From the NCBI RefSeq assembly GCF_003790525.1, contig NZ_CP033635.1: a DNA stretch of 64,000 bases; one strand, 5' to 3'. Within the stretch, counting starts at the first letter, position 1. Each line of letters opens with the position of its first letter. A program made the position numbers and the translations under genes. Positions 626 through 44,365 of this stretch are shown one piece after another. This stretch comes from Escherichia coli (GTDB lineage Bacteria; Pseudomonadota; Gammaproteobacteria; Enterobacterales; Enterobacteriaceae). The notes beneath the pieces are model-generated. The model worked only from the letters and a program-made list of their open reading frames with translations. It did no database searches and was not told the origin of the DNA.

Positions 626-702
626 GCTATTTTTGATAGTTCTTGCGGCTAATATGCTCTATATAGTGATGTTCCGATGACTTATGACTATATGGAGCAA
701 AT

Positions 703-1819
703 ATGGTTACGCCAGTAAGCATCAGCAATTACATATCTCTTCCTGATGATTTTCCCGTACGTAATATTGCACCGCAGGTAAAAGAAGTTTTAAAGGATTT
801 CATTGATGCACTTAGTACAATAATATGTGATGAAGAATGGCGCACGTCTTTAAACATCAACTCAGCCACAAAAAAGATATTTAATAACCTTGACAACTTA
901 TCATATATTCAGAGGACTTCTTTTCGGGGGTAACGACACGCTATACAATGAAAAGGTTCAGTTTAAACTCACTTATCCCGTCAAGAATGGAAGACACAAA
1001 GAAAATATTGAATTTCAGGTAGTAATAAATTTAAGCCCTATTTATTTAGATAATTTCCGCCATGATGGGGAAATTAATATTTTTTGCGCTCCCAACCCAA
1101 AGCCTGTCACTATGGGGCGCGTATTTCAGACCGGCGTCGAGCGTGTGCTCTTTCTTTTTCTGAATGACTTTATAGAACAATTTCCAATAATCAACCCTGG
1201 CGTTCCTATCAAAAGAGCGCATACGCCACATATTGAACCCCTGCATCCGGATCACCATACCGCTGCAGATTACATACGCCAGTTTGATTTGCTTGTCCTG
1301 AATTTTATCTCTCGCGGTAATTTTGTCATACTCCCCCGATTATGGAATAACTCTGAGGTTCACAGATGGTTCGGGAATAAAGAACCTAACTTGCTCACCG
1401 CTATTCTCGACATAACGGACAGCGAATTAAAAGAGGATTTATTGCAAAGTCTGATGGATTCACTAGGTTCTAACAAACATGTACTACCCGAAGTCTGCAT
1501 CTGCTTTTTATCCCTTTTAGCAGAACAAGATTTTCCACATTTTCAGGAGTTGTTTTTATTTTTCGCCAATATGTTATTGCACTATCACCAATTTATGAAT
1601 CCCAATGAAAGTGATTTGATTGACGTGTTGATGCCAGCATCATTAAGTGATGATAAAATTATCAAACATATGGCGCGCAAGACCCTCAAACTTTTTGTAA
1701 AAAATGAAACGCCGCCAAAAGTTACTCATGAAGACCTGGTGAAAAACAGGCCTCGCTCCCCTGTCAGACCACCTATACCCGCAACTGCCAAAACGCCAGA
1801 CCTCCCTGAACGTCATTAA
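703..1819 (+). pseudogene. yneK: YneK-like protein split by a +1 frameshift in a G5 run near 926-930 (or sequencing error)
   Basis: ORFs 703..933 and 890..1819 overlap in different frames; removing one G joins ...RTSFRG to NDTLYNEK... Confidence 0.5.
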
Positions 1820-14148: not shown

Positions 14149-15039
14149 TTAAACTCGGTGAATCACGTTTTGTTCGTCAATAAACATACAGCGATTTCTT
14201 CCGGTTTGCTTACCCTCATACATTGCCCGGTCCGCTCTTCCAATGACCACATCCAGAGGCTCTTCAGGAAATGCGCGACTCACACCTGCTGTCACGGTAA
14301 TGTTGATATGCCCTTCAGAATGTGTGATGGCATGGTTATCGACTAACTGGCAAATTCTGATACCTGCACGACATGCTTCTTCATCATTATCCGCTTTGAC
14401 AATAATGATAAATTCTTCGCCCCCGTAGCGATAAACCGTTTCGTAATCACGCGTCCAACTGGCTAAGTAAGTTGCCAGGGTGCGTAATACTACATCGCCG
14501 ATTAAATGCCCGTAGGTATCATTAACCAATTTAAATCGGTCAATATCCAACAACATTAAATAAAGATTCAGAGGCTCAGCGTTGCGTAACTGATGATCGA
14601 AGGATTCATCAAGAACCCGACGACCCGGCAATCCCGTCAAAACATCCATATTGCTACGGATCGTCAGTAAATAAATTTTGTAATCGGTTAATGCCGCAGT
14701 AAAAGAAAGCAACCCTTCCTGAAAAGCGTCGAAATGCGCGTCCTGCCAGTGATTTTCAACAATAGCCAACATTAATTCCCGACCACAGTTATGCATATGT
14801 TGATGGGCAGAATCCATTAGCCGAACGTAAGGTAATTCATCGTTATCGAGTGGCCCCAGATGATCAATCCACCGACCAAACTGGCACAGTCCATAAGAAT
14901 GGTTATCCGTTATTTCTGGCTTACTGGCATCTATCGCGACCACGCTGTGAAACATACTTACCAGCCACTGGTAGTGGGCATCGATAGCCTTATTGAGATT
15001 TAACAAGATGGCATCAATTTCCGTTGTCTTCTTGATCAT
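14149..15039 (-). CDS. dgcZ: zinc-sensing diguanylate cyclase DgcZ (CZB + GGDEF)
   Basis: 296 aa; GGEEF motif present; recognised DgcZ/YdeH sequence. Confidence 0.9.
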   Translation of the reverse strand: MIKKTTEIDAILLNLNKAIDAHYQWLVSMFHSVVAIDASKPEITDNHSYGLCQFGRWIDHLGPLDNDELPYVRLMDSAHQHMHNCGRELMLAIVENHWQDAHFDAFQEGLLSFTAALTDYKIYLLTIRSNMDVLTGLPGRRVLDESFDHQLRNAEPLNLYLMLLDIDRFKLVNDTYGHLIGDVVLRTLATYLASWTRDYETVYRYGGEEFIIIVKADNDEEACRAGIRICQLVDNHAITHSEGHINITVTAGVSRAFPEEPLDVVIGRADRAMYEGKQTGRNRCMFIDEQNVIHRV

Positions 15040-15686: not shown

Positions 15687-15925
15687 ACTGACTCCTTAAT
15701 TGCGTTTGGTTTGACTTATTAAGTCTGGTTGCTATTTTTATAATTGCCAAATAAGAATACTGCCAATTGTTATAAGGCATTTAAAATCAGGCTACTAGAT
15801 GTCAAATATTCAGAGAATTTAACTCACTAAAGTTAAGAAGATTGAAGAGTCTTAAACATATTTCAGAACAATCAGATTTATAAATTTGAAAATTATTATA
15901 ACGGAAGAGTATACAAAAAAGTAAT

Positions 15926-24171: not shown

Positions 24172-25386
24172 TTACCAGTTCCACAGCGTGCCATCTTCCA
24201 GACGTGCGACTGGCAGATAAGCAGGTTCATAGGGATATTTCGCCGCCAGCTTTTCATCGAATTCGATGCCAAGACCCGGTTTGTCTCCCGGATGCATATA
24301 GCCGTTATCGAAAGTCCAGTTGTGCGGGAAGACTTCAAGCATTTGTTCGGAATAACCCATGTATTCCTGGACACCGAAATTGGGGACCCACAGATCAAAG
24401 TGCAGCGCCGCAGCCATGCAGACTGGCGACAAATCGGAAGGACCGTGTGAGCCAGTACGTACCTGATACAGCGAAGCAAAATCGGCAATCCGGCGCATAC
24501 CGGTAATCCCCCCCGCGTGAGTCAGCGTGGTGCGGATATAGTCGATGAGTTGTTCTTCAATCAGCTGTTTGCAGTCCCAGATGCTGTTGAAGACTTCACC
24601 CACTGCAATTGGCGTGACGGTGTGTTGGCGAATCAGGCGGAAACACTCCTGGTTTTCCGCAGGCGTCGGGTCTTCCATCCAGAACATGCGATAATCTTCA
24701 ATGCTTTTACCAAAGCGCGCCGCTTCAATAGGCGTTAAGCGATGGTGCATGTCATGAAGCAAATGTTCATTAAAACCAAACTTGTTACGTACCGCGTCAA
24801 ACAATTTCGGCATGAAATCGAGGTATTTCTCCGTCGACCACAGCTGCTCTTCCGGCCACTGTCCTTTGGTTGCGGGTTCATAAGCCAGACCTTTACCTTT
24901 CGACATGCCATAGGTGGTTTTCATACCAGGGATTCCGCACTGCACGCGGATGGCTTTGAATCCCAGCTCCTGATGACGGGCATAATCATCCAGAGCTTCA
25001 TCAATACTGTGACCGGTGGTATGGCAATAAACCATCACCCCTTCACGAGACGCGCCGCCGAGTAACTGGTAAAGCGGCATGTCGGCAGCTTTGGCTTTAA
25101 TATCCCACAGCGCCATATCAACCGCTGAAATGGCCGACATCGTAACCGGACCGCGACGCCAGTAAGCACCTTTATAGAAAAACTGCCAGATATCTTCGAT
25201 ACGGTGTGCATCGCGACCAATAAGCTGCGGACAAAGGTGATCCTGCAAATAAGAGGCCACGGAAAGCTCACGTCCATTTAGGGTGGCATCCCCAAGGCCC
25301 GTAATACCGTCCTCAGTGGTGATTTTTAATGTGACGAAATTACGCCCCGGACAGGTAACAAAAACTTCAGCCTTTACGATCTTCAT
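24172..25386 (-). CDS. rspA: starvation-sensing enolase-superfamily protein RspA
   Basis: 404 aa mannonate-dehydratase-like enolase from [10 protein letters not shown]. Confidence 0.88.
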
Positions 25387-25591
25387 GTTCGATTCCTTGC
25401 ATCGCTTGTCGTGATGCATGAAATTTACGCAACTGAGCTACTACCATACAAGTATGAAGATCAAAAAAAGCCGGAGTGATCACAAAAAAAGGCGTATATT
25501 TGCGCCGTGAATGGTTGACAAAAGATGAAATAGAATACCTTTTGTCAGCTGACACTTCCTCGTATCTTATTGATAAAATGAATTTATGTTC

Positions 25592-25918
25592 CTACGTGCG
25601 CCCCCAGCCCGCTACAATGATCAACATGCCGCAAAGCGCAATCAACGCCCCCGTCCAGTCATAAAGACTCAGTTTCACGCCATCCACAACGCGTAGCCAA
25701 ATCAACGCCGTGCAGACATAAACGCCACCATAAGCCGCGTAAACACGCCCACTCGCCGCAGGATGCAACGTTAACAACCAGACAAACAGCGCCAGTGAAA
25801 TCCCTGCCGGAAGCAACAGCCAGATACTGGCGTTTCGCTTCAACCACAGCCAGGGCAAAAAGCACCCAATAATTTCACACAGCGCAGTAGCAAAAAATAG
25901 TAACGTTGTTTTAATCAT
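25592..25918 (-). CDS. ynfA: UPF0060 inner membrane protein YnfA
   Basis: 108 aa 4-TM protein. Confidence 0.8.
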
Positions 25919-26052
25919 CTTTGTCACTTATTGACATCATGTATAGTTATAGGACGACATAATATCAGCAATATAAACACCCTCCTTGAACGTTTTGCGT
26001 TCGCAGTGGATGGTGTAGAATCAGCTTTAATCATTCATACAGGGAATGAATT

Positions 26053-26394
26053 ATGAAAATCACTCTCAGCAAACGAATCGGCCTGCTCGCTTTTCTGCTG
26101 CCTTGCGCACTGGCATTGAGCACAACTGTTCATGCCGAAACTAACAAACTGGTGATTGAGTCTGGCGACAGTGCACAAAGCCGCCAGCACGCCGCTATGG
26201 AAAAAGAGCAATGGAATGACACGCGCAATCTGCGCCAGAAAGTGAATAAACGCACTGAAAAAGAGTGGGATAAAGCCGACGCCGCTTTTGATAACCGCGA
26301 TAAATGTGAGCAAAGCGCCAACATCAATGCCTACTGGGAGCCAAATACTTTGCGCTGCCTGGACCGTCGAACTGGTCGCGTTATTACCCCCTAA
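26053..26394 (+). CDS. ynfB: secreted UPF0482 protein YnfB
   Basis: 113 aa with signal peptide. Confidence 0.8.
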
Positions 26395-26428
26395 CCTGTT
26401 ATTGATTTAAGGAATGTAAGGACACGTT

Positions 26429-26989
26429 ATGCCAAGCGCCCACAGTGTTAAGCTACGCCCGCTGGAGCGTGAAGATTTACGCTATGTACATCAACTCGAC
26501 AATAACGCCAGTGTGATGCGTTACTGGTTTGAGGAACCCTACGAAGCCTTTGTTGAACTCTCTGATCTGTACGATAAGCATATTCACGATCAGAGCGAAC
26601 GGCGCTTTGTGGTGGAATGTGACGGCGAAAAAGCCGGTCTGGTGGAGCTGGTGGAAATTAACCATGTTCATCGCCGCGCAGAATTTCAGATAATTATCTC
26701 CCCGGAATATCAGGGGAAAGGTCTGGCAACGCGTGCCGCAAAATTAGCAATGGACTATGGCTTCACCGTTCTCAATCTCTATAAGCTGTATCTGATCGTC
26801 GATAAAGAGAATGAAAAAGCGATTCACATTTACCGCAAGCTTGGCTTTACGGTTGAAGGTGAATTGATGCATGAGTTCTTTATTAATGGTCAATATCGGA
26901 ATGCCATTCGTATGTGCATATTCCAGCATCAGTATCTGGCAGAGCACAAAACACCGGGTCAGACTCTCCTGAAGCCGACCGCACAATAG
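26429..26989 (+). CDS. speG: spermidine N1-acetyltransferase
   Basis: 186 aa GNAT; recognised SpeG. Confidence 0.92.
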
Positions 26990-26991
26990 CA

Positions 26992-27702
26992 TTAATAATA
27001 ATCGATAGTATTTTTGATGGTGTAAACCCGTTCGACGGCGGGTTTTACTCCTTCATCAACAATGATTAGCTGACAGTCTACCGGATTGGCGTGACTGTCA
27101 TATTCACAGCTCTGTTTTACATTACCAACCCGTTGATTATTCAGTAAAGTAACCGCGGTGTAATCTAATTTTTTGATCGGATCCGTTGATGGCGTGGCGC
27201 TGACAGATAATGTTTTGTCGTTACTTTTCGTAGTTTTACCCAGCGGATACCCCTGATCATCATAGCGATATTCCATCTGCATCTGTTTGCTGCTGGCTTT
27301 AATCACAAAGCCATTATCATCGGTTTCCCAACTCACCCCGGCAGAAGGTAATTCTGCTAGCTGGCATTTTCCCTGCAAACGAACTCTTTTCTCCAGTGTC
27401 TGGGCATCACGGTAATAATTGGCGTCCAGTACCAGGGCAACCACGGTATTATTTTCCAGATCCAGTAATTCGAGAGAATCAAAACAGCCTTCTTCCGACA
27501 AAGTCCCCGAAACACGTTTCGTCACTTCACCTTGCTCATCCATTAATGTCTGAGTGAAATCTTTTACGGGACCACGCAGCGGATCAAAATCGAATTCATT
27601 AGAGAAACTGGCCATCTCCGGGGTAAATGAAAGTGTTACCTCTGTGCGGTCACATCCTGTGAGGAATATCGCGAGTAAGCATGGCAGTAATTTGTATTTC
27701 AC
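26992..27702 (-). CDS. ynfC: UPF0257 lipoprotein YnfC (start uncertain, possibly GTG)
   Basis: lipobox LTGC near N-terminus. Confidence 0.75.
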   Translation of the reverse strand: MKYKLLPCLLAIFLTGCDRTEVTLSFTPEMASFSNEFDFDPLRGPVKDFTQTLMDEQGEVTKRVSGTLSEEGCFDSLELLDLENNTVVALVLDANYYRDAQTLEKRVRLQGKCQLAELPSAGVSWETDDNGFVIKASSKQMQMEYRYDDQGYPLGKTTKSNDKTLSVSATPSTDPIKKLDYTAVTLLNNQRVGNVKQSCEYDSHANPVDCQLIIVDEGVKPAVERVYTIKNTIDYY

Positions 27703-27806
27703 AACAGTCACCTGAGAGTAGAGATGATTCTCAATCATAGTAGCAAATACAGTACTTTACACGTTAAATGCTATGCTTAAAGAAGTTATCTTCGCGTAAG
27801 GAGCTT

Positions 27807-28115
27807 ATGATGAAACTCTCAACCTGCTGTGCCGCGCTTCTGCTCGCCCTCGCCTCACCCGCGGTACTCGCCGCGCCGGGATCCTGTGAGCGCATACAGA
27901 GCGATATATCACAGCGCATTATCAATAATGGCGTACCCGAAAGCAGCTTCACGTTAAGTATTGTACCCAATGACCAGGTTGATCAGCCTGATTCCCAGGT
28001 CGTCGGGCATTGCGCTAATGATACGCATAAAATTCTCTACACCCGCACCACCAGCGGTAACGTCTCTGCTCCCGCGCAGTCTACCCAGGATGGCGCGCCT
28101 GCCGAACCGCAGTAA
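27807..28115 (+). CDS. ynfD: secreted DUF1161-type protein YnfD
   Basis: about 102 aa with signal peptide. Confidence 0.75.
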   Translation: MMKLSTCCAALLLALASPAVLAAPGSCERIQSDISQRIINNGVPESSFTLSIVPNDQVDQPDSQVVGHCANDTHKILYTRTTSGNVSAPAQSTQDGAPAEPQ

Positions 28116-28313
28116 CACATTATCGACTGAACGCCGGATACGACACATCCGGCGATTTGAACATACAACATAATCCCACCTTATTACTCATACCCTTCTA
28201 TTGATATGGATTAATAATTCTTAACCCAAAATGGGTAGACTCCCTCTATTGTTAGCGCGCTAAATATTCAATATATAAACTTTTATATAACGATAAAGAA
28301 CAGGGAGTGAGTT

Positions 28314-30740
28314 ATGTCCAAAAATGAACAAATGGTGGGCATCAGCCGCAGAACACTCGTTAAATCTACCGCGATAGGTTCTCTGGCGCTGGCTGCAGGC
28401 GGTTTTTCTTTACCGTTCACCCTGCGCAGTTCAGCGGCAGCGGTACAACAGGCCAGCGAAAAAGTGGTCTGGGGTGCCTGTTCCGTCAACTGTGGTAGCC
28501 GCTGTGCACTTCGTCTACATGTTAAAGATAATGAAGTCACTTGGGTGGAAACTGACAACACCGGCAACGACGAGTATGGCAATCAACAAGTACGCGCCTG
28601 TTTGCGCGGTCGGTCCATCCGTCGACGTATTAATCATCCCGATCGCTTGAATTACCCAATGAAACGCGTGGGCAAACGTGGCGAAGGCAAATTCGAACGG
28701 ATTAGCTGGGATGAAGCCCTGGATACTATCGCCAGTAGCCTGAAAAAAACCGTCGAACAATATGGCAATGAGGCTGTATATATTCAGTACTCTTCAGGGA
28801 TCGTTGGCGGCAATATGACCCGCTCTTCACCATCAGCCTCGGCGGTCAAACGCCTGATGAACTGCTACGGCGGTTCACTCAATCAGTATGGCTCCTACAG
28901 CACCGCGCAAATTTCCTGTGCCATGCCCTACACCTACGGCAGTAATGATGGCAACAGCACCACGGATATTGAAAACAGCAAGCTGGTCGTGATGTTTGGT
29001 AACAACCCGGCAGAAACCCGCATGAGCGGCGGTGGCATCACTTATCTTCTTGAAAAAGCACGCGAGAAATCGAACGCAAAAATGATTGTTATCGATCCGC
29101 GATATACCGATACGGCTGCTGGTCGTGAAGACGAATGGTTACCTATTCGCCCGGGCACCGATGCCGCGCTGGTTGCGGGTATTGCCTGGGTATTGATTAA
29201 CGAAAATCTCGTTGATCAACCTTTTCTCGATAAATACTGCGTCGGCTATGACGAAAAAACCTTACCCGCAGATGCACCAAAAAATGGTCACTATAAAGCC
29301 TATATTCTTGGTGAAGGTGATGATAAAACAGCGAAAACGCCGCAGTGGGCTTCGCAAATTACCGGTATCCCGGTGGACCGTATCATCAAGCTGGCTCGTG
29401 AAATTGGCACAGCAAAACCCGCTTATATCTGCCAGGGCTGGGGGCCGCAACGCCAGGCAAACGGTGAGCTGACCGCACGCGCTATTGCTATGTTGCCTAT
29501 TTTGACGGGCAATGTCGGCATCAGCGGCGGAAATAGTGGTGCGCGTGAATCGACCTATACCATTACCATAGAACGCCTACCGGTGCTGGATAATCCGGTC
29601 AAAACGTCAATCTCTTGCTTCAGCTGGACGGATGCTATCGATCATGGCCCGCAAATGACGGCAATCCGCGACGGTGTCCGGGGCAAAGATAAACTGGATG
29701 TGCCCATTAAGTTCATCTGGAACTACGCGGGAAATACCCTCGTTAATCAGCATTCTGACATCAACAAAACGCATGAAATTCTGCAGGACGAATCGAAATG
29801 CGAAATGATTGTGGTCATCGAAAACTTTATGACCTCATCGGCAAAATATGCCGACATTCTGCTGCCAGACCTGATGACCGTTGAGCAGGAAGATATTATT
29901 CCTAACGACTACGCCGGTAACATGGGATATCTCATTTTCCTTCAGCCAGTCACCAGCGAAAAATTCGAACGCAAACCGATTTACTGGATCCTGAGTGAAG
30001 TCGCGAAACGTCTTGGACCTGACGTCTATCAAAAGTTCACTGAAGGTCGCACTCAGGAACAATGGTTACAACATCTGTACGCCAAAATGCTTGCCAAAGA
30101 TCCGGCGTTACCGTCTTACGACGAACTGAAAAAAATGGGTATCTATAAGCGTAAAGATCCCAATGGTCATTTTGTCGCCTACAAAGCATTTCGTGAGGAC
30201 CCCGAGGCAAATCCACTTAAAACGCCTTCCGGTAAGATTGAAATTTATTCCAACAGGCTGGCGGAAATTGCCCGTACCTGGGAACTGGAAAAAGATGAAG
30301 TGATAAGCCCATTGCCAGTTTATGCCTCAACCTTTGAAGGCTGGGACTCCCCTGAACGTAGAACCTTCCCACTGCAACTGTTTGGTTTCCATTACAAATC
30401 CCGTACTCACTCGACCTACGGCAACATTGATGTCCTGAAGGCAGCCTGCCGTCAGGAGGTGTGGATCAACCCTATAGATGCACAGAAACGTGGGATTGCC
30501 AACGGCGATATGGTGCGGGTGTTTAACCATCGTGGCGAAGTTCGGCTACCAGCCAAAGTGACACCACGCATTCTCCCTGGAGTTAGTGCTATGGGCCAGG
30601 GAGCCTGGCACGAGGCCAATATGTCTGGCGATAAAATCGACCATGGCGGCTGTGTGAATACGCTAACCACTCTGCGCCCTTCACCACTGGCGAAGGGAAA
30701 CCCGCAGCACACTAATCTGGTCGAGATCGAAAAAATATAA
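28314..30740 (+). CDS. ynfE: Tat-exported molybdopterin oxidoreductase catalytic subunit (DmsA paralog)
   Basis: 808 aa, twin-arginine signal (SRRTLVK), Cys cluster CSVNCGSRC. Confidence 0.9.
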   Translation: MSKNEQMVGISRRTLVKSTAIGSLALAAGGFSLPFTLRSSAAAVQQASEKVVWGACSVNCGSRCALRLHVKDNEVTWVETDNTGNDEYGNQQVRACLRGRSIRRRINHPDRLNYPMKRVGKRGEGKFERISWDEALDTIASSLKKTVEQYGNEAVYIQYSSGIVGGNMTRSSPSASAVKRLMNCYGGSLNQYGSYSTAQISCAMPYTYGSNDGNSTTDIENSKLVVMFGNNPAETRMSGGGITYLLEKAREKSNAKMIVIDPRYTDTAAGREDEWLPIRPGTDAALVAGIAWVLINENLVDQPFLDKYCVGYDEKTLPADAPKNGHYKAYILGEGDDKTAKTPQWASQITGIPVDRIIKLAREIGTAKPAYICQGWGPQRQANGELTARAIAMLPILTGNVGISGGNSGARESTYTITIERLPVLDNPVKTSISCFSWTDAIDHGPQMTAIRDGVRGKDKLDVPIKFIWNYAGNTLVNQHSDINKTHEILQDESKCEMIVVIENFMTSSAKYADILLPDLMTVEQEDIIPNDYAGNMGYLIFLQPVTSEKFERKPIYWILSEVAKRLGPDVYQKFTEGRTQEQWLQHLYAKMLAKDPALPSYDELKKMGIYKRKDPNGHFVAYKAFREDPEANPLKTPSGKIEIYSNRLAEIARTWELEKDEVISPLPVYASTFEGWDSPERRTFPLQLFGFHYKSRTHSTYGNIDVLKAACRQEVWINPIDAQKRGIANGDMVRVFNHRGEVRLPAKVTPRILPGVSAMGQGAWHEANMSGDKIDHGGCVNTLTTLRPSPLAKGNPQHTNLVEIEKI

Positions 30741-30797
30741 CCCTCTACGACCATAAATTTTGACATGACATTTTGTTTGAAAAGCAATAAGTGAGTA

Positions 30798-33223
30798 ATG
30801 ATGAAAATCCATACCACAGAGGCGCTCATGAAGGCTGAAATCAGCCGTAGAAGTCTGATGAAAACCTCCGCACTTGGCAGTCTTGCGCTGGCAAGCAGTG
30901 CTTTCACTCTGCCATTTTCCCAAATGGTCCGAGCGGCAGAGACACCGGTAGAAGAGAAAGCGGTCTGGAGTTCCTGCACCGTTAACTGCGGGAGCCGCTG
31001 TCTGTTACGTTTGCATGTGAAAGATGACACCGTGTACTGGGTGGAGTCTGATACGACAGGTGACGACGTCTACGGTAATCATCAGGTTCGAGCGTGTTTA
31101 CGCGGGCGCTCTATCCGTCGACGGATGAATCATCCTGACAGGTTGAAATATCCCATGAAGCGCGTCGGCAAGCGCGGTGAAGGTAAATTTGAACGGATAA
31201 GTTGGGATGAAGCCCTGGATACCATCAGTGATAATCTTCGGCGGATCCTGAAAGATTACGGCAATGAGGCTGTACATGTCCTGTACGGAACAGGCGTAGA
31301 TGGCGGAAACATCACCAACTCGAACGTCCCGTACCGTCTGATGAACTCTTGCGGTGGTTTTCTCAGTCGCTATGGCAGCTACAGTACCGCACAGATCAGT
31401 GCCGCGATGAGTTATATGTTCGGTGCCAATGATGGCAACAGCCCGGATGATATCGCCAATACGAAACTGGTCGTTATGTTCGGAAATAACCCGGCAGAAA
31501 CCCGGATGAGCGGCGGTGGTGTCACTTACTACGTCGAGCAAGCCCGCGAACGTTCAAACGCACGCATGATCGTCATTGATCCACGTTATAACGACACTGC
31601 TGCCGGCGTGAAGATGAATGGCTGCCCATTCGCCCTGGCACCGATGGCGCACTGGCCTGTGCGATTGCCTGGGTACTGATTACTGAAAACATGGTCGATC
31701 AGCCATTTCTCGACAAATATTGTGTTGGTTACGATGAAAAAACGCTGCCCGCCAACGCACCACGTAACGCGCATTATAAAGCCTATATTCTGGGCGAAGG
31801 GCCTGACGGCATAGCTAAAACGCCGGAATGGGCAGCAAAAATCACCAGCATCCCGGCAGAAAAAATTATCCAGTTGGCACGAGAGATCGGTTCAGCAAAA
31901 CCGGCTTATATTTGTCAGGGTTGGGGGCCACAACGACATTCCAACGGCGAGCAAACATCCCGCGCTATTGCCATGCTTTCCGTTCTCACCGGTAACGTCG
32001 GCATAAACGGCGGCAACTCAGGTGTACGCGAAGGTAGCTGGGATCTGGGAGTAGAATGGTTCCCGATGCTCGAGAATCCTGTTAAAACGCAGATTTCCGT
32101 CTTTACATGGACAGATGCCATCGACCATGGTACGGAAATGACCGCGACCCGTGATGGTGTTCGTGGAAAAGAAAAACTGGATGTCCCCATCAAGTTTTTA
32201 TGGTGCTACGCCAGTAACACATTGATCAATCAACATGGCGACATCAATCACACCCATGAGGTGCTTCAGGATGACAGCAAGTGCGAGATGATTGTTGGCA
32301 TTGACCACTTCATGACTGCCTCGGCTAAGTATTGCGATATCCTGTTGCCCGACCTGATGCCAACAGAGCAAGAAGACCTTATCTCTCACGAATCTGCCGG
32401 GAATATGGGCTATGTGATCCTCGCCCAACCCGCAACCTCAGCAAAATTTGAACGCAAACCCATCTACTGGATTCTGAGTGAAGTTGCCAAACGCTTAGGA
32501 CCAGACGTTTATCAAACCTTTACTGAAGGTCGCAGTCAGCATGAATGGATCAAATATCTCCATGCGAAAACGAAGGAACGTAACCCTGAGATGCCCGACT
32601 ACGAGGAGATGAAAACGACCGGGATCTTTAAGAAAAAATGCCCGGAAGAACACTACGTCGCTTTCCGCGCATTCCGTGAAGATCCACAGGCAAACCCGTT
32701 GAAAACACCTTCGGGGAAAATCGAAATTTATTCTGAACGACTGGCGACGATTGCGGATACCTGGGAATTGAAAAAAGATGAAATTATTCATCCCCTTCCT
32801 GCATATACCCCAGGTTTTGATGGCTGGGACGATCCCCTGCGGAAAACCTATCCACTGCAGCTAACGGGCTTCCACTACAAAGCACGTACCCACTCCAGCT
32901 ACGGCAATATTGATGTGTTACAGCAGGCCTGCCCACAAGAGGTGTGGATCAACCCCATTGATGCTCAGGCACGCGGTATCCGTCATGGCGATACCGTGCG
33001 GGTATTTAACACTAATGGAGAAATGCTGATTGCCGCAAAAGTGACTCCGCGTATTCTGCCTGGCGTTACCGCCATCGGGCAAGGTGCGTGGCTTAAAGCG
33101 GATATGTTTGGTGACCGGGTCGATCACGGCGGCAGTATCAATATTCTGACCTCTCACCGCCCTTCACCGCTGGCAAAGGGAAACCCGTCGCACAGCAATC
33201 TAGTCCAGATCGAAAAGGTTTAA
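30798..33223 (+). pseudogene. ynfF: YnfF (second DmsA paralog) disrupted by an apparent 1-nt deletion near 31605-31610 (or sequencing error)
   Basis: ORFs 30798..31679 and 31691..33223 together match YnfE end-to-end but are in different frames; frame-A tail after DPRYNDTAAG is nonsense. Confidence 0.6.
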
Positions 33224-33233
33224 GGAGTAGCCC

Positions 33234-33851
33234 ATGACCACACAATATGGATTTTTTATCGATTCCAGCCGCTGTACTGGCTGTAAAACCTGCGAACTGG
33301 CGTGCAAAGATTTTAAAGATCTTGGCCCGGAAGTCAGTTTCCGCCGTATTTATGAATATGCTGGCGGCGACTGGCAGGAAGATAATGGCGTCTGGCACCA
33401 GAACGTGTTCGCTTATTATCTCTCCATCTCCTGTAACCATTGCGATGACCCCGCATGTACAAAAGTCTGCCCCAGCGGCGCAATGCATAAGCGTGAAGAT
33501 GGCTTTGTGGTGGTTGATGAAGATGTTTGTATCGGCTGCCGCTACTGCCACATGGCTTGTCCGTACGGCGCACCACAGTACAATGCTGAAAAAGGGCACA
33601 TGACGAAGTGCGATGGTTGTTATTCGCGCGTCGCCGAGGGGAAACAACCCATATGTGTCGAATCCTGCCCGCTGCGTGCACTTGAATTCGGTCCAATTGA
33701 AGAGCTGCGCCAGAAGCACGGCACTCTGGCTGCCGTTGCGCCACTGCCGCGCGCGCATTTCACAAAACCCAATATCGTTATCAAACCTAACGCCAACAGC
33801 CGCCCGACCGGCGATACCACTGGTTATCTGGCTAATCCGGAGGAAGTGTAA
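33234..33851 (+). CDS. ynfG: 4Fe-4S ferredoxin-type electron-transfer subunit (DmsB paralog)
   Basis: 205 aa with four CxxCxxCxxxCP clusters. Confidence 0.9.
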   Translation: MTTQYGFFIDSSRCTGCKTCELACKDFKDLGPEVSFRRIYEYAGGDWQEDNGVWHQNVFAYYLSISCNHCDDPACTKVCPSGAMHKREDGFVVVDEDVCIGCRYCHMACPYGAPQYNAEKGHMTKCDGCYSRVAEGKQPICVESCPLRALEFGPIEELRQKHGTLAAVAPLPRAHFTKPNIVIKPNANSRPTGDTTGYLANPEEV

Positions 33852-33852
33852 A

Positions 33853-34707
33853 ATGGGAAATGGATGGCATGAATGGCCACTGGTTATCTTTACCGTATTG
33901 GGTCAATGCGTAGTAGGCGCGCTGATTGTTAGCGGAATTGGCTGGTTCGCCGCCAAAAATGACGCAGACCGTCAGCGTATTGTCCGTGGCATGTTTTTCC
34001 TCTGGCTGTTGATGGGCATCGGGTTTATTGCCTCTGTCATGCACCTGGGGTCGCCACTGCGGGCGTTTAACTCGCTGAATCGAATCGGAGATTCTGGTCT
34101 GAGTAACGAGATTGCTGCCGGTTCCATATTTTTTGCCGTTGGCGGATTATGGTGGCTGGTGGCAGTCATCGGTAAAATGCCGCAAGCGTTGGGGAAACTC
34201 TGGTTACTTGTCAGCATGGCGCTCGGCGTCATTTTCGTCTGGATGATGACCTGCGTGTATCAAATCGACACAGTGCCAACCTGGCATAACGGTTACACTA
34301 CGCTGGCTTTCTTCCTGACAGTATTGTTGAGCGGTCCAATACTTGCTGCCGCAATTCTGCGGGCAGCCCGCGTTACATTTAATACCACACCATTTGCCAT
34401 CATTAGCGTTCTGGCGCTGATCGCTTGTGCCGGGGTGATTGTGCTGCAAGGTTTGTCTCTGGCGTCTATTCACTCATCCGTACAACAAGCCAGCGCACTG
34501 GTACCAGATTACGCCTCCTTACAGGTCTGGCGTGTGGTATTGTTATGCGCAGGTCTAGGATGCTGGCTTTGTCCGCTCATTCGTCGCCGTGAACCTCACG
34601 TTGCCGGACTTGTTCTGGGGTTAATCCTCATTCTTGGCGGTGAAATGATCGGGCGTGTGCTCTTTTATGGCCTGCACATGACGGTAGGAATGGCTATTGC
34701 AGGTTAA
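33853..34707 (+). CDS. ynfH: membrane anchor subunit (DmsC paralog)
   Basis: 284 aa polytopic protein from MGNGWHEW, overlapping the ynfG stop. Confidence 0.85.
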   Translation: MGNGWHEWPLVIFTVLGQCVVGALIVSGIGWFAAKNDADRQRIVRGMFFLWLLMGIGFIASVMHLGSPLRAFNSLNRIGDSGLSNEIAAGSIFFAVGGLWWLVAVIGKMPQALGKLWLLVSMALGVIFVWMMTCVYQIDTVPTWHNGYTTLAFFLTVLLSGPILAAAILRAARVTFNTTPFAIISVLALIACAGVIVLQGLSLASIHSSVQQASALVPDYASLQVWRVVLLCAGLGCWLCPLIRRREPHVAGLVLGLILILGGEMIGRVLFYGLHMTVGMAIAG

Positions 34708-34749
34708 CAAATTGGTGCGGGGCAACCCGCACATTTCAGGATGTTAGGA

Positions 34750-35364
34750 ATGACCCATTTTTCACAGCAAGATAATTTTTCTGTTGCGGCGCGCGTGTTG
34801 GGCGCGCTGTTTTATTACGCTCCAGAGAGTGCGGAAGCCGCCCCCCTGGTTGCGGCACTCACCCGTGACGGCTGGGAAACTCAGTGGCCTCTACCAGAAG
34901 AGTCATTAGCGCCGCTGGTGACTGCTTTTCAGACACAGAGTGAAGAGACTCACGCCCAGGCTTGGCAGCGTTTGTTTGTCGGCCCGTGGGCACTGCCGTC
35001 ACCGCCGTGGGGATCGGTCTGGCTGGATCGCGAATCTGTGCTGTTTGGCGATTCAACATTGGCACTTCGTCAGTGGATGCGCGAGAAAGGCATTCAGTTT
35101 GAAATGCAGCAAAACGAACCGGAAGATCATTTTGGTTCACTGCTGTTGATGGCTGCGTGGTTGGCGGAGAATGGTCGCCAGACAGAATGCGAAGAATTGC
35201 TGGCATGGCACCTTTTTCCGTGGTCAACACGTTTTCTTGACGTTTTTATCGAAAAAGCAGAACACCCTTTCTACTGTGCACTGGGTGAACTGGCTCGCTT
35301 AACGCTGGCGCAATGGCAATCACAACTGTTGATTCCTGTCGCGGTTAAACCACTCTTTCGATAG
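34750..35364 (+). CDS. dmsD: Tat proofreading chaperone DmsD
   Basis: 204 aa from MTHFSQQDNF, TorD family. Confidence 0.88.
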   Translation: MTHFSQQDNFSVAARVLGALFYYAPESAEAAPLVAALTRDGWETQWPLPEESLAPLVTAFQTQSEETHAQAWQRLFVGPWALPSPPWGSVWLDRESVLFGDSTLALRQWMREKGIQFEMQQNEPEDHFGSLLLMAAWLAENGRQTECEELLAWHLFPWSTRFLDVFIEKAEHPFYCALGELARLTLAQWQSQLLIPVAVKPLFR

Positions 35365-35558
35365 GATCACCGTAATATTGCCGGATGGTGACGATTACGC
35401 GCGATTCGGCAATAATACGTTACAGTGTCACGTTTTTTTATCTCTTAAAGCACGCACTGCTTTTGCGGCTGGCCTCTTTTGCCGCAAAATAGTCGCCCGT
35501 GTTTCATTGCCCATTTCTGCTCATGCATCATCTACACATCTATCCGGATCTGAGCACT

Positions 35559-36815
35559 ATGTTCCGCCGTCTGCTTATCGCAACAGTCGTCGGTATTCTT
35601 GCGGCCTTTGCCGTTGCCGGGTTTCGTCATGCAATGCTGCTACTGGAGTGGTTGTTCCTCAATAATGACTCCGGCAGTCTGGTCAATGCAGCGACAAATC
35701 TTTCCCCATGGCGACGGTTGCTAACTCCGGCGCTCGGCGGACTGGCGGCGGGTTTGTTGCTGATGGGCTGGCAGAAATTTACCCAGCAACGCCCTCATGC
35801 GCCGACCGATTACATGGAAGCGTTGCAAACCGATGGTCAGTTCGATTACGCAGCAAGCCTGGTTAAATCGCTTGCCTCTCTGCTGGTAGTAACCAGCGGC
35901 AGTGCAATTGGTCGCGAAGGTGCGATGATTCTTTTAGCTGCCCTTGCCGCCTCCTGTTTTGCCCAACGTTTTACGCCACGCCAGGAGTGGAAATTATGGA
36001 TCGCCTGTGGAGCTGCGGCGGGAATGGCTGCGGCCTATCGAGCCCCGCTTGCTGGCAGTTTATTTATAGCCGAAGTGCTGTTTGGCACTATGATGTTGGC
36101 CTCTCTCGGCCCGGTGATTATTTCCGCCGTCGTGGCGTTGCTGGTTAGCAATCTGATTAATCATAGCGACGCGTTACTCTACAGCGTACAACTCTCAGTG
36201 ACGGTTCAGGCTCGTGACTATGCGCTGATTATCAGTACAGGTGTGCTGGCAGGTCTGTGCGGACCACTGTTGTTAACGTTAATGAACGCCTGTCATCGTG
36301 GATTTGTAAGTCTCAAACTTGCGCCGCCCTGGCAACTGGCACTGGGCGGGTTGATCGTGGGTCTGCTTTCCCTGTTCACACCTGCAGTGTGGGGCAACGG
36401 CTATAGCACCGTACAATCCTTTTTAACCGCCCCGCCACTGTTAATGATCATTGCCGGGATCTTCCTCTGTAAACTGTTTGCCGTGCTGGCGAGTAGTGGT
36501 TCTGGCGCGCCCGGTGGTGTCTTTACACCGACGCTATTTATCGGTCTTGCCATTGGCATGTTGTATGGTCGTAGCCTGGGATTATGGTTCCCTGATGGCG
36601 AAGAAATTACGCTTTTACTCGGATTGACCGGGATGGCGACACTATTGGCGGCAACCACGCACGCGCCGATTATGTCGACGTTGATGATATGTGAAATGAC
36701 CGGGGAGTATCAGCTACTCCCCGGTTTATTGATTGCCTGCGTAATTGCGTCGGTAATTTCGCGGACGTTACACCGTGACTCTATCTACCGCCAGCACACT
36801 GCGAAGCATAGCTAA
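35559..36815 (+). CDS. clcB: ClC-type voltage-gated chloride channel ClcB
   Basis: 418 aa from [11 protein letters not shown]; GREG and GxFxP motifs. Confidence 0.85.
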
Positions 36816-37463
36816 GCGGATGTATTGCCCCAGTTCACGCTGTTCGGCGCGCGGCAGATAAGGCAGTTCACCAATGAGCGGTGCCGGAAGTTTTTTACCG
36901 AGCACATCAATGATTTCCGCATAATGCGCAAGTCCTGGGTTGATTCGGTTAGCCACCCAGCCAATGAGCGGCAGCCCGTCGTTGGCAATCGCCTGAGCTG
37001 TTAGCAGTGCATGGTTAATGCAACCTTCCTGAATACCGACAACCATCAACACCGGCAGTTGTTCCTGCACCACCCATTCAGAGAGCGGACGCAAATCATT
37101 CATCAGACTGCGCCAGCCGCCAGTCCCTTCTACCACGACATGATCGACTTTATCGGTCAGGTTTGCCAGGCCGTTTGAAATGAGGGTGTAATTGATTGGG
37201 CAACTGTGCGCCACGCTACTTTCTTCTTCGCTTAACGCGATAGGATTAACTGCTTCATAAGGCAGTTCGATGGTTGAAACACTCTGCAACACCAGGGCAT
37301 CTTTATTACGCAGCCCTTCGGGTGTCTCTTTGCTCCCCTTCGCTACGGGTTTATATCCCGCAACCGTTTTTCCCTGGGAGGCTAACGCTTGTAGCAATGC
37401 GCGGGAAACCACCGTTTTCCCTACAGAAGTGTCTGTACCGGTAATAAAGAAACGCTTCAGCAT
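36768..37463 (-). CDS. bioD2: dethiobiotin synthetase paralog BioD2 (YnfK)
   Basis: 231 aa with P-loop GTDTSVGKT. Confidence 0.85.
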
Positions 37464-37587
37464 CACTAACTCCACCGTTATGCTTCACAAATATAAACCA
37501 GGAAAATAATTAACCTTGAAAGTCTAAGTTATGCTTTCCTGGCCCAAATTGAGATAGCGCAAATTTTGGTAGAACAGTTAAAAAATG

Positions 37588-38808
37588 TTAACCCTGCAAC
37601 AGACGAATCAACAAAGAACCGTTATACATCGCGTCTTTTACTAGCGCAGCCCCTGCCATCGTACCCTGGTTAGAAAATTGAGTACTCTCAACGCTAATGT
37701 GCTGACTATACGCAGGAAGGGCCTGCTGACGGATGCTGTCCGAGATGACCGGGAAGAGGATATCTGCCGCTTTACTTAACGGTGAGCCAATCAGTATTTT
37801 TTGTGGGTTAAATAAATTCACCATGATGGCAAGAATGCGCCCGACATGCGCGCCCACCCCGGTAATGATGTCTTTTGCCAGTAGATCGCCGCGCAATGCC
37901 GCCTGACACAATGAGTCCACGGTTAACGGCTGTCCATGTAACATCGAGCTCATGGATTGATTGAGACGCAGCTGTGCCAGCTCAAGAATACTGTCCACAC
38001 TGGCGATGGTTTCGAGGCAGCCGTGATTCCCGCAATAACAGCGTTTCCCATACGGGTCGACCTGCGTGTGACCTATTTCCACGAGGCTACTGCTGCCGGC
38101 GTGTAGCAGATGACCATCGGTAATGACGCCCGCCCCCACGTTGTGATCGATAACCACCTGAATCACATCGCGCGCCCCGCGTGAGGCACCAAACAAGGCC
38201 TCTGCCATCGTCCATGCGCTGATATCATGCTGGATATAAACCGGTACGCCGGTATGCTGCTCCAGCGCCTCGCCGAGCGGCATCTCTTTTACATCCTCGT
38301 AGAACGGCATGCGATGTACAATGCCATTTTCCGTATCAATAATTCCCGGCAAGGTTATGGCAATCGAAGTTAGACGCTCAAGTTTTTTCTGGTGGCGGAT
38401 AAAAAACTGATCGATATGGGAAATGATACGATCCAGCAATGGTGAGTCATCTTTTAACGCCAGTTCCTGCGCCTCCTCCACCACCAGTTTGCTGCTCAGA
38501 TCGCGCAGAGCAAGGAAAATCTCCCCGCGACTAATGCGCAGAGAAAGATAGTGCCAGGCTTCAGTTTCAACCACCAGCCCCACCGCCGGACGGCCACGGT
38601 TCCCCGCTTCTTTGATTTCCAGCTCTTGCACCAGGTGTGCTTCGAGCATCTCACGGACAATTTTAGTGATACTGGCAGGAGCCAGTTGCGCCAGACGGGA
38701 AAGATCGATACGCGAGACTGGACCAAGCTGATCAATCAGGCGATATACCGCGCCCGCGTTGGTCTGCTTTATTTGATCAATGTGCCCAGGCTGGTTTTCA
38801 GCAACCAC
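37588..38808 (-). CDS. mlc: ROK-family global regulator Mlc (DgsA)
   Basis: 406 aa ROK protein with N-terminal HTH. Confidence 0.9.
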   Translation of the reverse strand: MVAENQPGHIDQIKQTNAGAVYRLIDQLGPVSRIDLSRLAQLAPASITKIVREMLEAHLVQELEIKEAGNRGRPAVGLVVETEAWHYLSLRISRGEIFLALRDLSSKLVVEEAQELALKDDSPLLDRIISHIDQFFIRHQKKLERLTSIAITLPGIIDTENGIVHRMPFYEDVKEMPLGEALEQHTGVPVYIQHDISAWTMAEALFGASRGARDVIQVVIDHNVGAGVITDGHLLHAGSSSLVEIGHTQVDPYGKRCYCGNHGCLETIASVDSILELAQLRLNQSMSSMLHGQPLTVDSLCQAALRGDLLAKDIITGVGAHVGRILAIMVNLFNPQKILIGSPLSKAADILFPVISDSIRQQALPAYSQHISVESTQFSNQGTMAGAALVKDAMYNGSLLIRLLQG

Positions 38809-38942
38809 CGCATACTCCCTATATTTTCGCGCTCCGAAATAATCTGTAGGCTATGGTGAAGCACTTCAATACGTGTCGTCAAATTTTTACTTAGGCATGT
38901 GATTAACAGCACATTTTTCGGGCTTTTTCGCTGAAATTTCCC

Positions 38943-39836
38943 TCACCTGAGAGCATTCAGCAGATGAATACGAAAGTTTCGCGCAGCTGGACTTTGTTCA
39001 TGATGTTTCGGCCAGACCAACCACATTTCAGAAACCGCATCCTCTTCAGCAATCGGCACCCAGCGCATTTCGTTGAGCTGAACACGTTTAAATGACGCAG
39101 GCAAAATTGAAACGCCCAGACCAGCGGAAACCAGACCGATGATGGTCATTGCCTCACCCACCTCCTGAGTGATGACGGGCGTCAAATGGTAACGTCGCAT
39201 CAGTCCGAGAATATCGTCATACAGCCCTGTCCCGACGTGCGGATCAAAAAAGACAAAGGGTTCTTTCGCCAGTTCAGCCAGCGTTACACTCGGGTTATTT
39301 GCCAGGGGATGATCGTGCGGGATCATCGCCATAAGCGGTTCATGGACGATGACTGCGTGTTCAAGCGTCTCCGGTAACGCTGTGTTACGCAGCAATCCCA
39401 TATCCAGCGTTCCTTCAATGAGCGGAGCGATTTGCTCGCGAGTGTTCATTTCGCGGGTTTGTAAATGGACATCGGGATAATCACGGCGAAACAGCGATAA
39501 CGTATCAGACACCGCCCGAATAAAAGGAGCGGACGAAGTAAAACCAATACGCAACTCCCCCGCTTCACCCTGATGCAGTCTTTCAGCGCGAGCGGCAGCG
39601 TCATCCACCATAGACAGGATTTGCCGACTATCTGCAAGAAACTGTTTTCCTGCTGCCGTCAGAAATACACTGCGATTGGTTCGTGCCAGCAGTCGGGCAC
39701 CAATTTGTTGCTCCAGCGCCTGAATCTGCTGGCTTAGCGGCGGTTGCGAAATATTCAGGCGGGCAGCGGCGCGCCCGAAATGCAGCTCTTCTGCAACCGC
39801 AACAAAGTAACGCAGATGACGAAGTTCAATATTCAT
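38943..39836 (-). CDS. ynfL: LysR-family transcriptional regulator YnfL
   Basis: 297 aa, LysR HTH MNIELRHLRYFVAVAEELHFGRAA. Confidence 0.85.
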   Translation of the reverse strand: MNIELRHLRYFVAVAEELHFGRAAARLNISQPPLSQQIQALEQQIGARLLARTNRSVFLTAAGKQFLADSRQILSMVDDAAARAERLHQGEAGELRIGFTSSAPFIRAVSDTLSLFRRDYPDVHLQTREMNTREQIAPLIEGTLDMGLLRNTALPETLEHAVIVHEPLMAMIPHDHPLANNPSVTLAELAKEPFVFFDPHVGTGLYDDILGLMRRYHLTPVITQEVGEAMTIIGLVSAGLGVSILPASFKRVQLNEMRWVPIAEEDAVSEMWLVWPKHHEQSPAARNFRIHLLNALR

Positions 39837-39942
39837 ATTTAAAACATCTTATTTGAGATTATTAATATATTAGACAGAACAATTCGATTTTCCTAATCTA
39901 TCCATAAGCCTGATCCACAGGCATATTTAGCAAGGATTTCAA

Positions 39943-41196
39943 GTGAGCCGTACTACAACTGTTGATGGCGCTCCGGCAAGCGACACTGACAAGCAAAGCA
40001 TTTCTCAGCCAAATCAATTTATTAAACGCGGTACGCCGCAATTTATGCGCGTCACCCTGGCGCTGTTCTCTGCCGGACTGGCAACCTTCGCACTTCTCTA
40101 TTGTGTGCAACCTATCCTTCCGGTGCTTTCGCAGGAGTTTGGCTTAACGCCCGCGAACAGTAGTATTTCACTGTCCATTTCCACGGCGATGTTGGCTATC
40201 GGTTTGCTGTTTACTGGCCCGTTATCCGATGCCATTGGTCGCAAACCAGTGATGGTCACGGCGCTACTGTTGGCCTCCATTTGTACGTTACTTTCGACAA
40301 TGATGACCAGCTGGCACGGCATTTTGATTATGCGCGCCTTGATTGGGCTTTCGTTAAGTGGCGTAGCAGCTGTTGGCATGACTTATCTTAGCGAGGAAAT
40401 CCACCCCAGTTTCGTGGCCTTTTCGATGGGGTTGTATATCAGCGGCAACTCAATTGGCGGCATGAGCGGACGCTTAATTAGCGGTGTCTTCACGGACTTT
40501 TTCAACTGGCGAATTGCGCTGGCGGCAATCGGTTGTGTCGCGCTGGCCTCGGCGTTAATGTTCTGGAAAATCCTCCCTGAATCACGCCATTTTCGCCCGA
40601 CTTCGCTGCGACCTAAGACGTTGTTTATCAACTTTCGTCTGCACTGGCGTGACCGGGGATTACCGTTATTGTTCGCAGAAGGCTTTTTGCTGATGGGGTC
40701 GTTCGTCACGCTGTTTAATTACATCGGCTATCGGTTGATGCTCTCCCCCTGGCATGTCAGTCAGGCTGTGGTTGGCTTATTATCGCTGGCCTATTTGACC
40801 GGTACATGGAGCTCACCCAAAGCCGGAACCATGACCACCCGCTATGGGCGCGGTCCGGTGATGTTGTTTTCGACGGGGGTTATGCTGTTTGGTTTACTGA
40901 TGACCTTATTCAGCTCGCTGTGGCTGATCTTTGCCGGAATGTTACTCTTCTCAGCCGGATTCTTCGCAGCCCACTCCGTTGCCAGCAGCTGGATCGGCCC
41001 CCGCGCAAAACGCGCTAAAGGCCAGGCCTCCTCGCTGTATCTGTTCAGTTACTATCTGGGGTCGAGTATTGCCGGGACGCTGGGTGGTGTTTTCTGGCAT
41101 AACTATGGCTGGAACGGCGTCGGCGCATTTATTGCTCTGATGCTGGTCATTGCTCTGCTGGTCGGGACGCGTTTGCATCATCGTCTGCACGCCTGA
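39943..41196 (+). CDS. ynfM: MFS transporter YnfM
   Basis: 417 aa MFS, divergent from ynfL. Confidence 0.85.
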   Translation: MSRTTTVDGAPASDTDKQSISQPNQFIKRGTPQFMRVTLALFSAGLATFALLYCVQPILPVLSQEFGLTPANSSISLSISTAMLAIGLLFTGPLSDAIGRKPVMVTALLLASICTLLSTMMTSWHGILIMRALIGLSLSGVAAVGMTYLSEEIHPSFVAFSMGLYISGNSIGGMSGRLISGVFTDFFNWRIALAAIGCVALASALMFWKILPESRHFRPTSLRPKTLFINFRLHWRDRGLPLLFAEGFLLMGSFVTLFNYIGYRLMLSPWHVSQAVVGLLSLAYLTGTWSSPKAGTMTTRYGRGPVMLFSTGVMLFGLLMTLFSSLWLIFAGMLLFSAGFFAAHSVASSWIGPRAKRAKGQASSLYLFSYYLGSSIAGTLGGVFWHNYGWNGVGAFIALMLVIALLVGTRLHHRLHA

Positions 41197-41620
41197 AAAA
41201 ATAAGTCCGGACTGAGGTAAATACCCGTCCGGACTTATTGCCTGCTCAAACCAACGTTAATAGCCATCCTAAAATAGACGAAGCGCCAGCCAATTCCCGC
41301 AGCGCATCTAGCGTCATCAGGATTATAAGTACCCAAATAAACGGATTCATTTTGCTGTGTGTCATTTATTACTGATGCGCAGTTATTCTACCGCTTTGTG
41401 GGTAGTAAAATAGTTAACCCGATCAAGACTACTATTATTGGTAGCTAAATTTCCCTTAAGTCACAATACGTTATTATCAACGCTGTAATTTATTCAGCGT
41501 TTGTACATATCGTTACACGCTGAAACCAACCACTCACGGAAGTCTGCCATTCCCAGGGATATAGTTATTTCAACGGCCCCGCAGTGGGGTTAAATGAAAA
41601 AACAAATTGAGGGTATGACA

Positions 41621-41929
41621 ATGAAAAAAGTATTAGCTCTGGTTGTTGCCGCTGCTATGGGTCTGTCTTCTGCCGCCTTTGCTGCAGAAACTGCGACCAC
41701 ACCTGCTCCGACTGCGACGACCACCAAAGCAGCGCCGGCGAAAACTACACATCATAAAAAACAGCATAAAGCAGCACCTGCCCAGAAAGCGCAGGCGGCT
41801 AAAAAGCATCATAAAAATGCGAAAGCTGAACAGAAAGCTCCTGAACAAAAAGCGCAGGCAGCGAAGAAACACGCCAAGAAACACAGCCATCAGCAACCGG
41901 CAAAACCTGCTGCACAACCCGCAGCGTAA
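41621..41929 (+). CDS. asr: acid shock protein Asr (Lys/Ala/His-rich periplasmic protein)
   Basis: 102 aa from [21 protein letters not shown] with KKHxK repeats. Confidence 0.88.
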
Positions 41930-42021
41930 GTTTTCAACAGTAATGCTGGCGCGCCCCCTCGCGCCTGAAAATTACGGTGCTAAGCGGTTAACGTTTAGCA
42001 CCGCCTTTAGCGGAGGGTAGT

Positions 42022-42105
42022 ATGGTGGGCCGTTATCGCTTTGAGTTCATTCTTATCATCCTTATTTTATGCGCACTGATTGCCGCCCGTTTTTATCTTT
42101 CCTGA
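42022..42105 (+). CDS. ydgU: small membrane protein YdgU (27 aa)
   Basis: MVGRYRFEFILIILILCALIAARFYLS, single TM helix. Confidence 0.5.
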   Translation: MVGRYRFEFILIILILCALIAARFYLS

Positions 42106-42204
42106 TCGTAGTTATCTGATTTTACTCCCACTTTCATCCCGTCCCGTCTATAGTATTTATGAGGGTTTGCTTTTAATAATCATAATTACCCACCAGAGTG
42201 TGAT

Positions 42205-43026
42205 ATGCGTACAACCATTGCTGTAGTGTTGGGTGCAATTAGTTTGACGTCTGCTTTTGTGTTTGCAGATAAACCAGACGTTGCCAAATCGGCAAACGAT
42301 GAGGTCAGCACCCTGTTTTTTGGTCATGATGATCGTGTGCCAGTAAATGACACGACCCAATCACCGTGGGATGCGGTTGGGCAACTGGAAACGGCCAGCG
42401 GCAATTTATGTACGGCTACGCTGATTGCACCCAATCTGGCATTAACGGCAGGACACTGTTTATTGACGCCGCCAAAGGGTAAAGCCGATAAAGCGGTAGC
42501 GCTGCGTTTCGTGTCAAATAAAGGTCTTTGGCGCTATGAGATCCACGACATAGAAGGCCGCGTTGACCCGACACTAGGAAAGCGGTTAAAAGCAGATGGG
42601 GATGGCTGGATTGTACCTCCCGCAGCTGCGCCGTGGGACTTCGGTTTGATTGTGCTACGTAATCCCCCTTCTGGCATTACACCGTTGCCGTTATTTGAGG
42701 GAGATAAAGCCGCGCTTACCGCCGCATTAAAAGCAGCTGGTCGTAAAGTGACTCAGGCGGGCTACCCTGAAGATCATCTCGATACGTTGTACAGTCATCA
42801 AAACTGTGAAGTGACTGGCTGGGCGCAAACGTCGGTGATGTCGCATCAGTGCGATACCTTGCCGGGAGACAGCGGTTCGCCTCTGATGTTGCATACCGAT
42901 GACGGCTGGCAATTAATTGGGGTACAAAGCTCGGCTCCTGCCGCGAAAGATCGCTGGCGCGCCGATAACCGGGCCATTTCTGTTACCGGTATTCGCGACA
43001 AGCTGGATCAACTGTCGCAAAAATAA
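42205..43026 (+). CDS. ydgD: secreted trypsin-like serine protease YdgD
   Basis: 273 aa, signal peptide, TAGHC and GDSGSP motifs. Confidence 0.85.
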
Positions 43027-43064
43027 TGTTCAAACGCTGCCCGACAGTGCGGGCAGCGTGTTCA

Positions 43065-43394
43065 TCAGGCAAGTTTCACCATGATCATTCCAGCCAACAG
43101 CAAGACCAGGCCAATCCAGCCTTTACGATTTAACCGTTGACCAAACAAGATCCAACCTGCGGCTAACGTGGCGGCAATACCAAACCCGCCCCACAATGCA
43201 TAAGCGACAGACAAGTCGATCCCTTTAACGGCCTGAGAAAGCGCACTAAAGGCAGCCAGCACCGCCGCCAGGGAGAGCAAGCCAAATATTTTGCGACGAA
43301 AGCCGTCAGAAAATTTCAAAAAGACGTTAGCAACGATTTCCAGCACGATTGCCAATGCCAGCCAGGCGGCGTGAACCCATTCAAACTGCGCCAT
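43065..43394 (-). CDS. mdtI: SMR-family spermidine exporter subunit MdtI
   Basis: 109 aa 4-TM SMR protein. Confidence 0.88.
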
Positions 43395-44322: not shown

Positions 44323-44365
44323 TTTAATTAAATAATTTGCACTACAAAAAGTGCCAAAAATCGCA

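Follow-up and report, generated by a model that had tools for sequence, protein, structure and literature searches.

The gene yneK is interrupted, in the 64,000-nucleotide stretch of Escherichia coli chromosome analysed here (hereafter the window), by one extra base in a short run of G (GGGGG, positions 926–930), and this extra G is private to the present sequence within its clade, the two-ORF form that it creates not being conserved. The likeliest origin of the fifth G, at in our judgement about even odds, is a homopolymer-length miscall in the assembly, in which case the strain probably carries an intact 371-codon yneK with GGGG, as do all its close relatives; on either origin the change is an unprogrammed one-base change in length, not a regulatory device. 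The feature is an ordinary one, in which a dispensable orphan gene is frameshifted by a private one-base change in a homopolymer; strain NCTC11121 provides an identical, annotated precedent.

The run was read directly from the window (positions 920–940, CTTTTCGGGGGTAACGACACG). A Shine–Dalgarno-like GGAG (694–697, plus strand) lies 5 nt 5′ of the yneK ATG, and translation from there gives a first ORF (703–933, plus strand) that comprises yneK codons 1–76 followed by a premature TAA; its start, ATG 703, coincides with that annotated for yneK in SMS-3-5 and CM2, and its 76 residues match the N-terminus of intact YneK exactly. The stop (931–933, plus strand) comes directly after the run (926–930, plus strand; GGGG in SMS-3-5, CM2, 2D and all listed close relatives) and is in frame through the extra G, the G4 allele reading GGT AAC there. 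Codons 77–371 and the normal stop follow in the +1 frame (932–1819, plus strand), inside a second, mechanically delimited ORF (890–1819, 309 aa) that is shifted by +1 relative to the first. With one G removed, a single open frame of 1116 nt (371 aa) results, and this repaired coding sequence is 100% identical in DNA to the annotated 1116-nt yneK of SMS-3-5. The repaired protein also matches the NCBIfam equivalog model NF033404 ‘YneK’ (cut-off 40 bits) from end to end (positions 1–371 of 371, E = 2e-245, 813 bits). The full-length match and the identity with SMS-3-5 together exclude a chance juxtaposition of two ORFs, and they bear out the preliminary description, which had named the gene as yneK, placed it at 703–1819 with the interrupting run at 926–930, and proposed that four Gs in place of five would join the two ORFs into one continuous protein.

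As written, the extra G would shift the frame after codon 76 straight into the in-frame TAA, leaving a 76-aa stub. The only in-frame starts of the second ORF are TTG 890 and ATG 1112, and inspection of the sequence found nothing resembling a Shine–Dalgarno sequence 5′ of either, so that no usable start remains for the 295 downstream codons; the allele as written is effectively null, specifying a 76-aa N-terminal stub. Scanned for promoters and terminators, positions 560–2000 gave no signal beyond what shuffled sequence would give and no site resembling a terminator.

YneK is a protein with few relatives. No Pfam family was found for it, nor any relative in the PDB even at E ≤ 10, and a phmmer search of 1.84 billion representative proteins recovered only YneK fragments and one 307-aa orthologue with 69% identity. 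An AlphaFold2 model built from a 6-sequence alignment (mean pLDDT 45, pTM 0.38) was too poor for a fold search. yneK is an orphan gene of unknown function, restricted to Escherichia/Shigella, and lies between ptrR (yneJ) and ydeA, the same neighbours being annotated in SMS-3-5, CM2, NCTC11121 and 2D. Its GC content is 39.7%, compared with 48.4% for the window and 51–55% for the neighbouring genes. A dN/dS of ~0.2 (against 16 other alleles) indicates that yneK is a real gene under constraint that is only moderate. It is non-essential, a yneK knockout having been tested in work that used Keio-collection deletion mutants (PMC12757027).

The window runs from ptrR (yneJ)–yneK–ydeA–marCRAB onward and is 99.99% identical to SMS-3-5 (NC_010498.1, reverse strand) outside one insertion sequence (ISVsa5 family, on the SMS-3-5 side) and one 11.4-kb island (on the window side). 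Positions 25001–44294 (19.3 kb) are perfectly identical to 11 complete genomes, and against nine genomes positions 1–25000 show a single mismatch and two gaps. When the ~52-kb core was compared base by base with SMS-3-5 and CM2, four differences were absent from both: the additional G at 926 (G4→G5 in yneK); C→A at 14933 in dgcZ (14149–15039, minus strand), giving DgcZ R36I; loss of an A at 15915 (an intergenic A7→A6); and a synonymous A→G at 57218 in pntB. The exact DgcZ R36I protein was absent from the public gene-position collection. Over the same core SMS-3-5 has two private differences and CM2 six, all of them substitutions, with no indels; homopolymer length changes therefore account for 2/4 private differences in the window, against 0/2 in SMS-3-5 and 0/6 in CM2, although these counts are tiny. 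The A6 run (15915–15920), which is A7 in SMS-3-5 and CM2, is situated between genes, near the ydeJ remnant and ydeI and 15 kb from the yneK change, and was found in 0/1800 complete E. coli genomes that contain the segment. The core holds a further 33 G/C runs of at least 5 bases and 74 A/T runs of at least 6, among which the A7 at 15915 is the only one to have changed length, and the window contains no Ns.

ynfF (selenate/tellurate reductase subunit, 30801–33223) is annotated as ‘frameshifted’ in SMS-3-5 and CM2, and the window is identical to them there; this looks like a clade-wide and presumably real pseudogene, unlike the private yneK lesion. An IS4-like, ISVsa5-family transposase insertion by asr in SMS-3-5 (window ~41662–41665) is lacking from the window and from CM2. 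The 11.4-kb island (44295–55719), which SMS-3-5 lacks, is inserted in the AI-2 transporter gene tqsA; the homologous island of CM2 is annotated with a tyrosine integrase, a RepA-family helicase, SSB, PerC regulators, an Icd-like protein, a major capsid protein and a head decoration protein, and it has the appearance of a phage satellite that encodes a capsid, or of a PICI-like element. Between 47.9 and 52.8 kb its divergence from CM2 follows a pattern suggestive of recombination.

The five-base run is very rare. An 81-bp query centred on it found the segment present in 4232/5426 complete E. coli genomes, only one of which, NCTC11121, has G5 (100% match to the query); the other 39 matches listed span 80 bases and are hence G4. 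With a 1317-bp query around yneK, no genome was identical and 18 differed by this single gap alone, which is what is expected of a frameshift pseudogene: an intact orthologue in relatives, and a single G as the sole change in 1317 bp. A metagenome scan, whose pattern accepted G4, G5 or G6, gave 33/33 contigs with G4 (27-base match) and none with G5 or G6. Protein records agree. The 76-aa product of the first ORF occurs as an exact protein on ~25 contigs, but all ten of those shown (10/10) have G4 and terminate within yneK, and such records are contig-end partials, not products of a G5 allele. The 309-aa product of the second ORF was not on record in an exact look-up, and the one record of the 235-aa protein from ATG 1112 comes from a Logan contig that has G4 and contains further errors. 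The comparison with other strains that had been proposed as a check thus leaves the interruption standing as described, the two-ORF form being found in one complete genome out of 4232 and not conserved.

Contigs of short-read drafts (L005–L014, NCBI) often end early in yneK, so that YneK partials of 55–129 aa are on record, individual ones on as many as 60 contigs, and at least 24 contigs end 0–3 bases from the G run (yneK nt 227–230). These ends probably reflect coverage drop-out in an AT-rich gene, not an insertion hot spot. A hot spot for insertion sequences at the G run, with excision leaving the extra G behind, was considered and rejected, since partials of many other lengths (55–129 aa) are equally common, which points to a general fragmentation of the region; excision footprints of insertion sequences are, moreover, not 1 bp in size, and the one IS5-like insertion seen in 2D lies elsewhere.

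Disruption of yneK is common and takes several forms. Some ~1160/5419 complete genomes keep only about half of a 2-kb query, and in Ecol_448, the one of these that was checked, a ~1-kb deletion leaves a 102-nt yneK remnant. In the clade-mate 2D, the IS5-like element ISKpn26 is inserted in yneK at CTTAG, ~115 bp 5′ of the G run, which is still G4. Shigella boydii encodes a 152-aa YneK (for example AKI66736.1) as a result of T6→T5 at window ~1080–1085, an allele present on 172 contigs, including one of 4.66 Mb, and indicating that yneK really does decay by slippage. A small ORF in an alternative frame of the window (1062–1163, plus strand; MMGKLIFFALPTQSLSLWGAYF...) encodes, with two residue differences, essentially the out-of-frame tail with which this 152-aa protein ends. 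Of the 25 full-length copies of yneK examined, 20 are intact and 5 carry disruptive homopolymer indels elsewhere than at the G run, and some of these five, being on low-coverage contigs, are probably errors themselves. In NCTC11121 (NZ_LR134220.1, EL088_RS11570) yneK is annotated as ‘frameshifted’ by PGAP. A generally error-ridden assembly was considered as the source of this G5 and could not be established, there being just two ‘frameshifted’ CDS in the surrounding 50 kb. IS3 copies interrupt ydeA, ydfI and ydfJ in this genome (2320000–2369999) within 25 kb of the G5 yneK, an expansion that suggests a degenerating stock strain.

As to the origin of the fifth G, the share of homopolymer indels among the private differences is an excess that tilts the balance towards a miscall in sequencing or assembly. 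Mutation accumulation in mismatch-repair-deficient E. coli gave ~0.85 indels per 6.0 base substitutions per CDS (PMC8510543), against which 2:2 is high for any biological spectrum, and unexpected even in mismatch-repair mutants if the change is real, although two indels and two SNPs are tiny numbers and the excess does no more than suggest such a cause. The window is otherwise near-identical to a tight clade; both indels are essentially unseen elsewhere (G5 in 1/4232 genomes and 0/33 metagenome contigs, A6 in 0/1800); and the proteins that a G5 allele could specify (76, 309 and 235 aa) have no genuine G5 record. A technical rather than a biological cause is what we would infer from these data, whereas the frameshift, its restriction to this sequence and the second unique homopolymer change are shown directly. 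However, a run of four Gs is short, and an error-prone technology would be expected to strike more of the longer runs; the same G5 occurs in NCTC11121, where the scarcity of frameshifted CDS nearby makes a real G4→G5 event plausible; and yneK is demonstrably prone to real inactivation. We give somewhat less than an even chance to a genuine and very recent loss of function, in which slipped-strand mispairing added a G to G4, possibly in a mutator strain, and reduced this dispensable orphan to a frameshift pseudogene with the 76-aa N-terminal stub as its sole product. The repeated inactivation of yneK in nature (the ~1-kb deletion, the insertion in 2D, T6→T5 in S. boydii) is in keeping with such a loss, as are the identical G5 of NCTC11121 on a different allele background (38 SNPs), the dispensability of the gene (PMC12757027) under selection that is only moderate (dN/dS ~0.2), and the cleanness of the remaining sequence, which contains no Ns and matches relatives perfectly over 19.3 kb. 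Longer runs have higher indel rates, and G:C runs of five bases are among the known targets (PMC8510543). Beyond the homopolymer indels, what tells against a genuine mutation is that the first 25 kb shows three private differences, compared with an apparent 0–2, judged from bit scores, in most clade-mates, and that G5 occurs in no independent sequence of the present lineage. A more ambitious account would place a real G5 within a convergent, selectively favoured loss of yneK across Escherichia/Shigella, the pattern comprising the ~1-kb deletion (about a fifth of complete genomes), the IS5 insertion in 2D, T6→T5 in S. boydii and independent G4→G5 changes here and in NCTC11121, with the short G run as a recurrent mutational target and possibly leaky −2/+1 slippage at GGG-UAA keeping a trace of full-length protein; this we consider highly improbable.

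Two readings would make the run functional. Phase variation, which the preliminary description had offered as one possible origin, would treat the run as a contingency tract that switches yneK between ON (G4) and OFF (G5) at high frequency. The fit is formal only, consisting of in-frame and out-of-frame homopolymer lengths within an ORF and of the fact that G5 occurs twice independently. A homopolymeric contingency tract typically has ~7–8 bases or more, whereas this one is four bases in the population and five here; its length is essentially invariant (G5 in 1/4232 genomes and 0/33 contigs, and in no close relative listed); the divergent orthologue P0032 lacks the R-G codons at the position of the run; and the longer homopolymers within yneK (A6, T6 and C5) would switch first. 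Phase variation is thus very improbable, and as an origin it falls on the shortness of the run and the rarity of G5 in genomes and metagenomes alike. The other two origins named in the preliminary description, sequencing error and pseudogenisation, are those weighed above, where circumstantial evidence slightly favours error. We find it scarcely credible that the gene is functionally split or recoded, with both ORFs used or with ribosomes shifting at CGG-GGG-UAA to make full-length YneK, either because tRNA-Gly re-pairs at −2 within the G run or through a +1 shift at the stop. A P-site GGG beside the stop on G5 would, on paper, permit perfect −2 re-pairing into the frame of the second ORF, and GGGGG is Shine–Dalgarno-like, as in the shift site of prfB. 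Yet the two-frame arrangement is not conserved, the G5 form being absent from 4231/4232 genomes; neither start of the second ORF, TTG 890 or ATG 1112, has an SD-like sequence; and the prfB-type architecture (a slippery CUU-U, an SD 3 nt upstream and a weak UGA-C stop) is absent.

The biological weight of the allele is very small: at most, one strain lacks a dispensable orphan gene that has been lost in many others. Its practical use is in quality control, where the yneK frameshift, together with A7→A6 at 15915, flags homopolymer calls for attention before the ‘pseudogenes’ of this assembly are read as such. More broadly, yneK is a frequently decaying accessory gene, which bears on pangenome association studies that score presence and absence; an association of this kind has involved yneK in bovine adherence (PMC11540155).

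Set beside known systems, the yneK site resembles the +1 frameshift site of prfB (RF2) in having a G-rich, SD-like stretch by an in-frame stop and a downstream ORF in the +1 frame, but the resemblance is superficial, the yneK site having no CUU-U and the wrong spacing and stop context. It shares with the contingency genes of Neisseria, Haemophilus and Campylobacter a mononucleotide run in the coding region that sets the reading frame; however, the yneK tract is far shorter, it shows no length polymorphism in the population, and yneK is not known to encode a surface or restriction-modification function. The homopolymer errors of pyrosequencing, semiconductor and long-read sequencing are likewise +1/−1 changes within mononucleotide runs, here private to the assembly and two within 15 kb, although such errors usually concentrate in the longest runs and nearly all such runs are untouched here. 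The 152-aa YneK of S. boydii, too, arises from a one-base homopolymer frameshift in yneK that leads to a premature stop, but by deletion instead of insertion, at another run, and in an allele fixed in its lineage and carried on 172 contigs. NCTC11121 has G4→G5 at the same position, with a yneK of 1117 nt and the same premature TAA, in an unrelated lineage with 38 substitutions across the gene, which indicates that its G5 arose, as an event or as an error, independently of the one described here.
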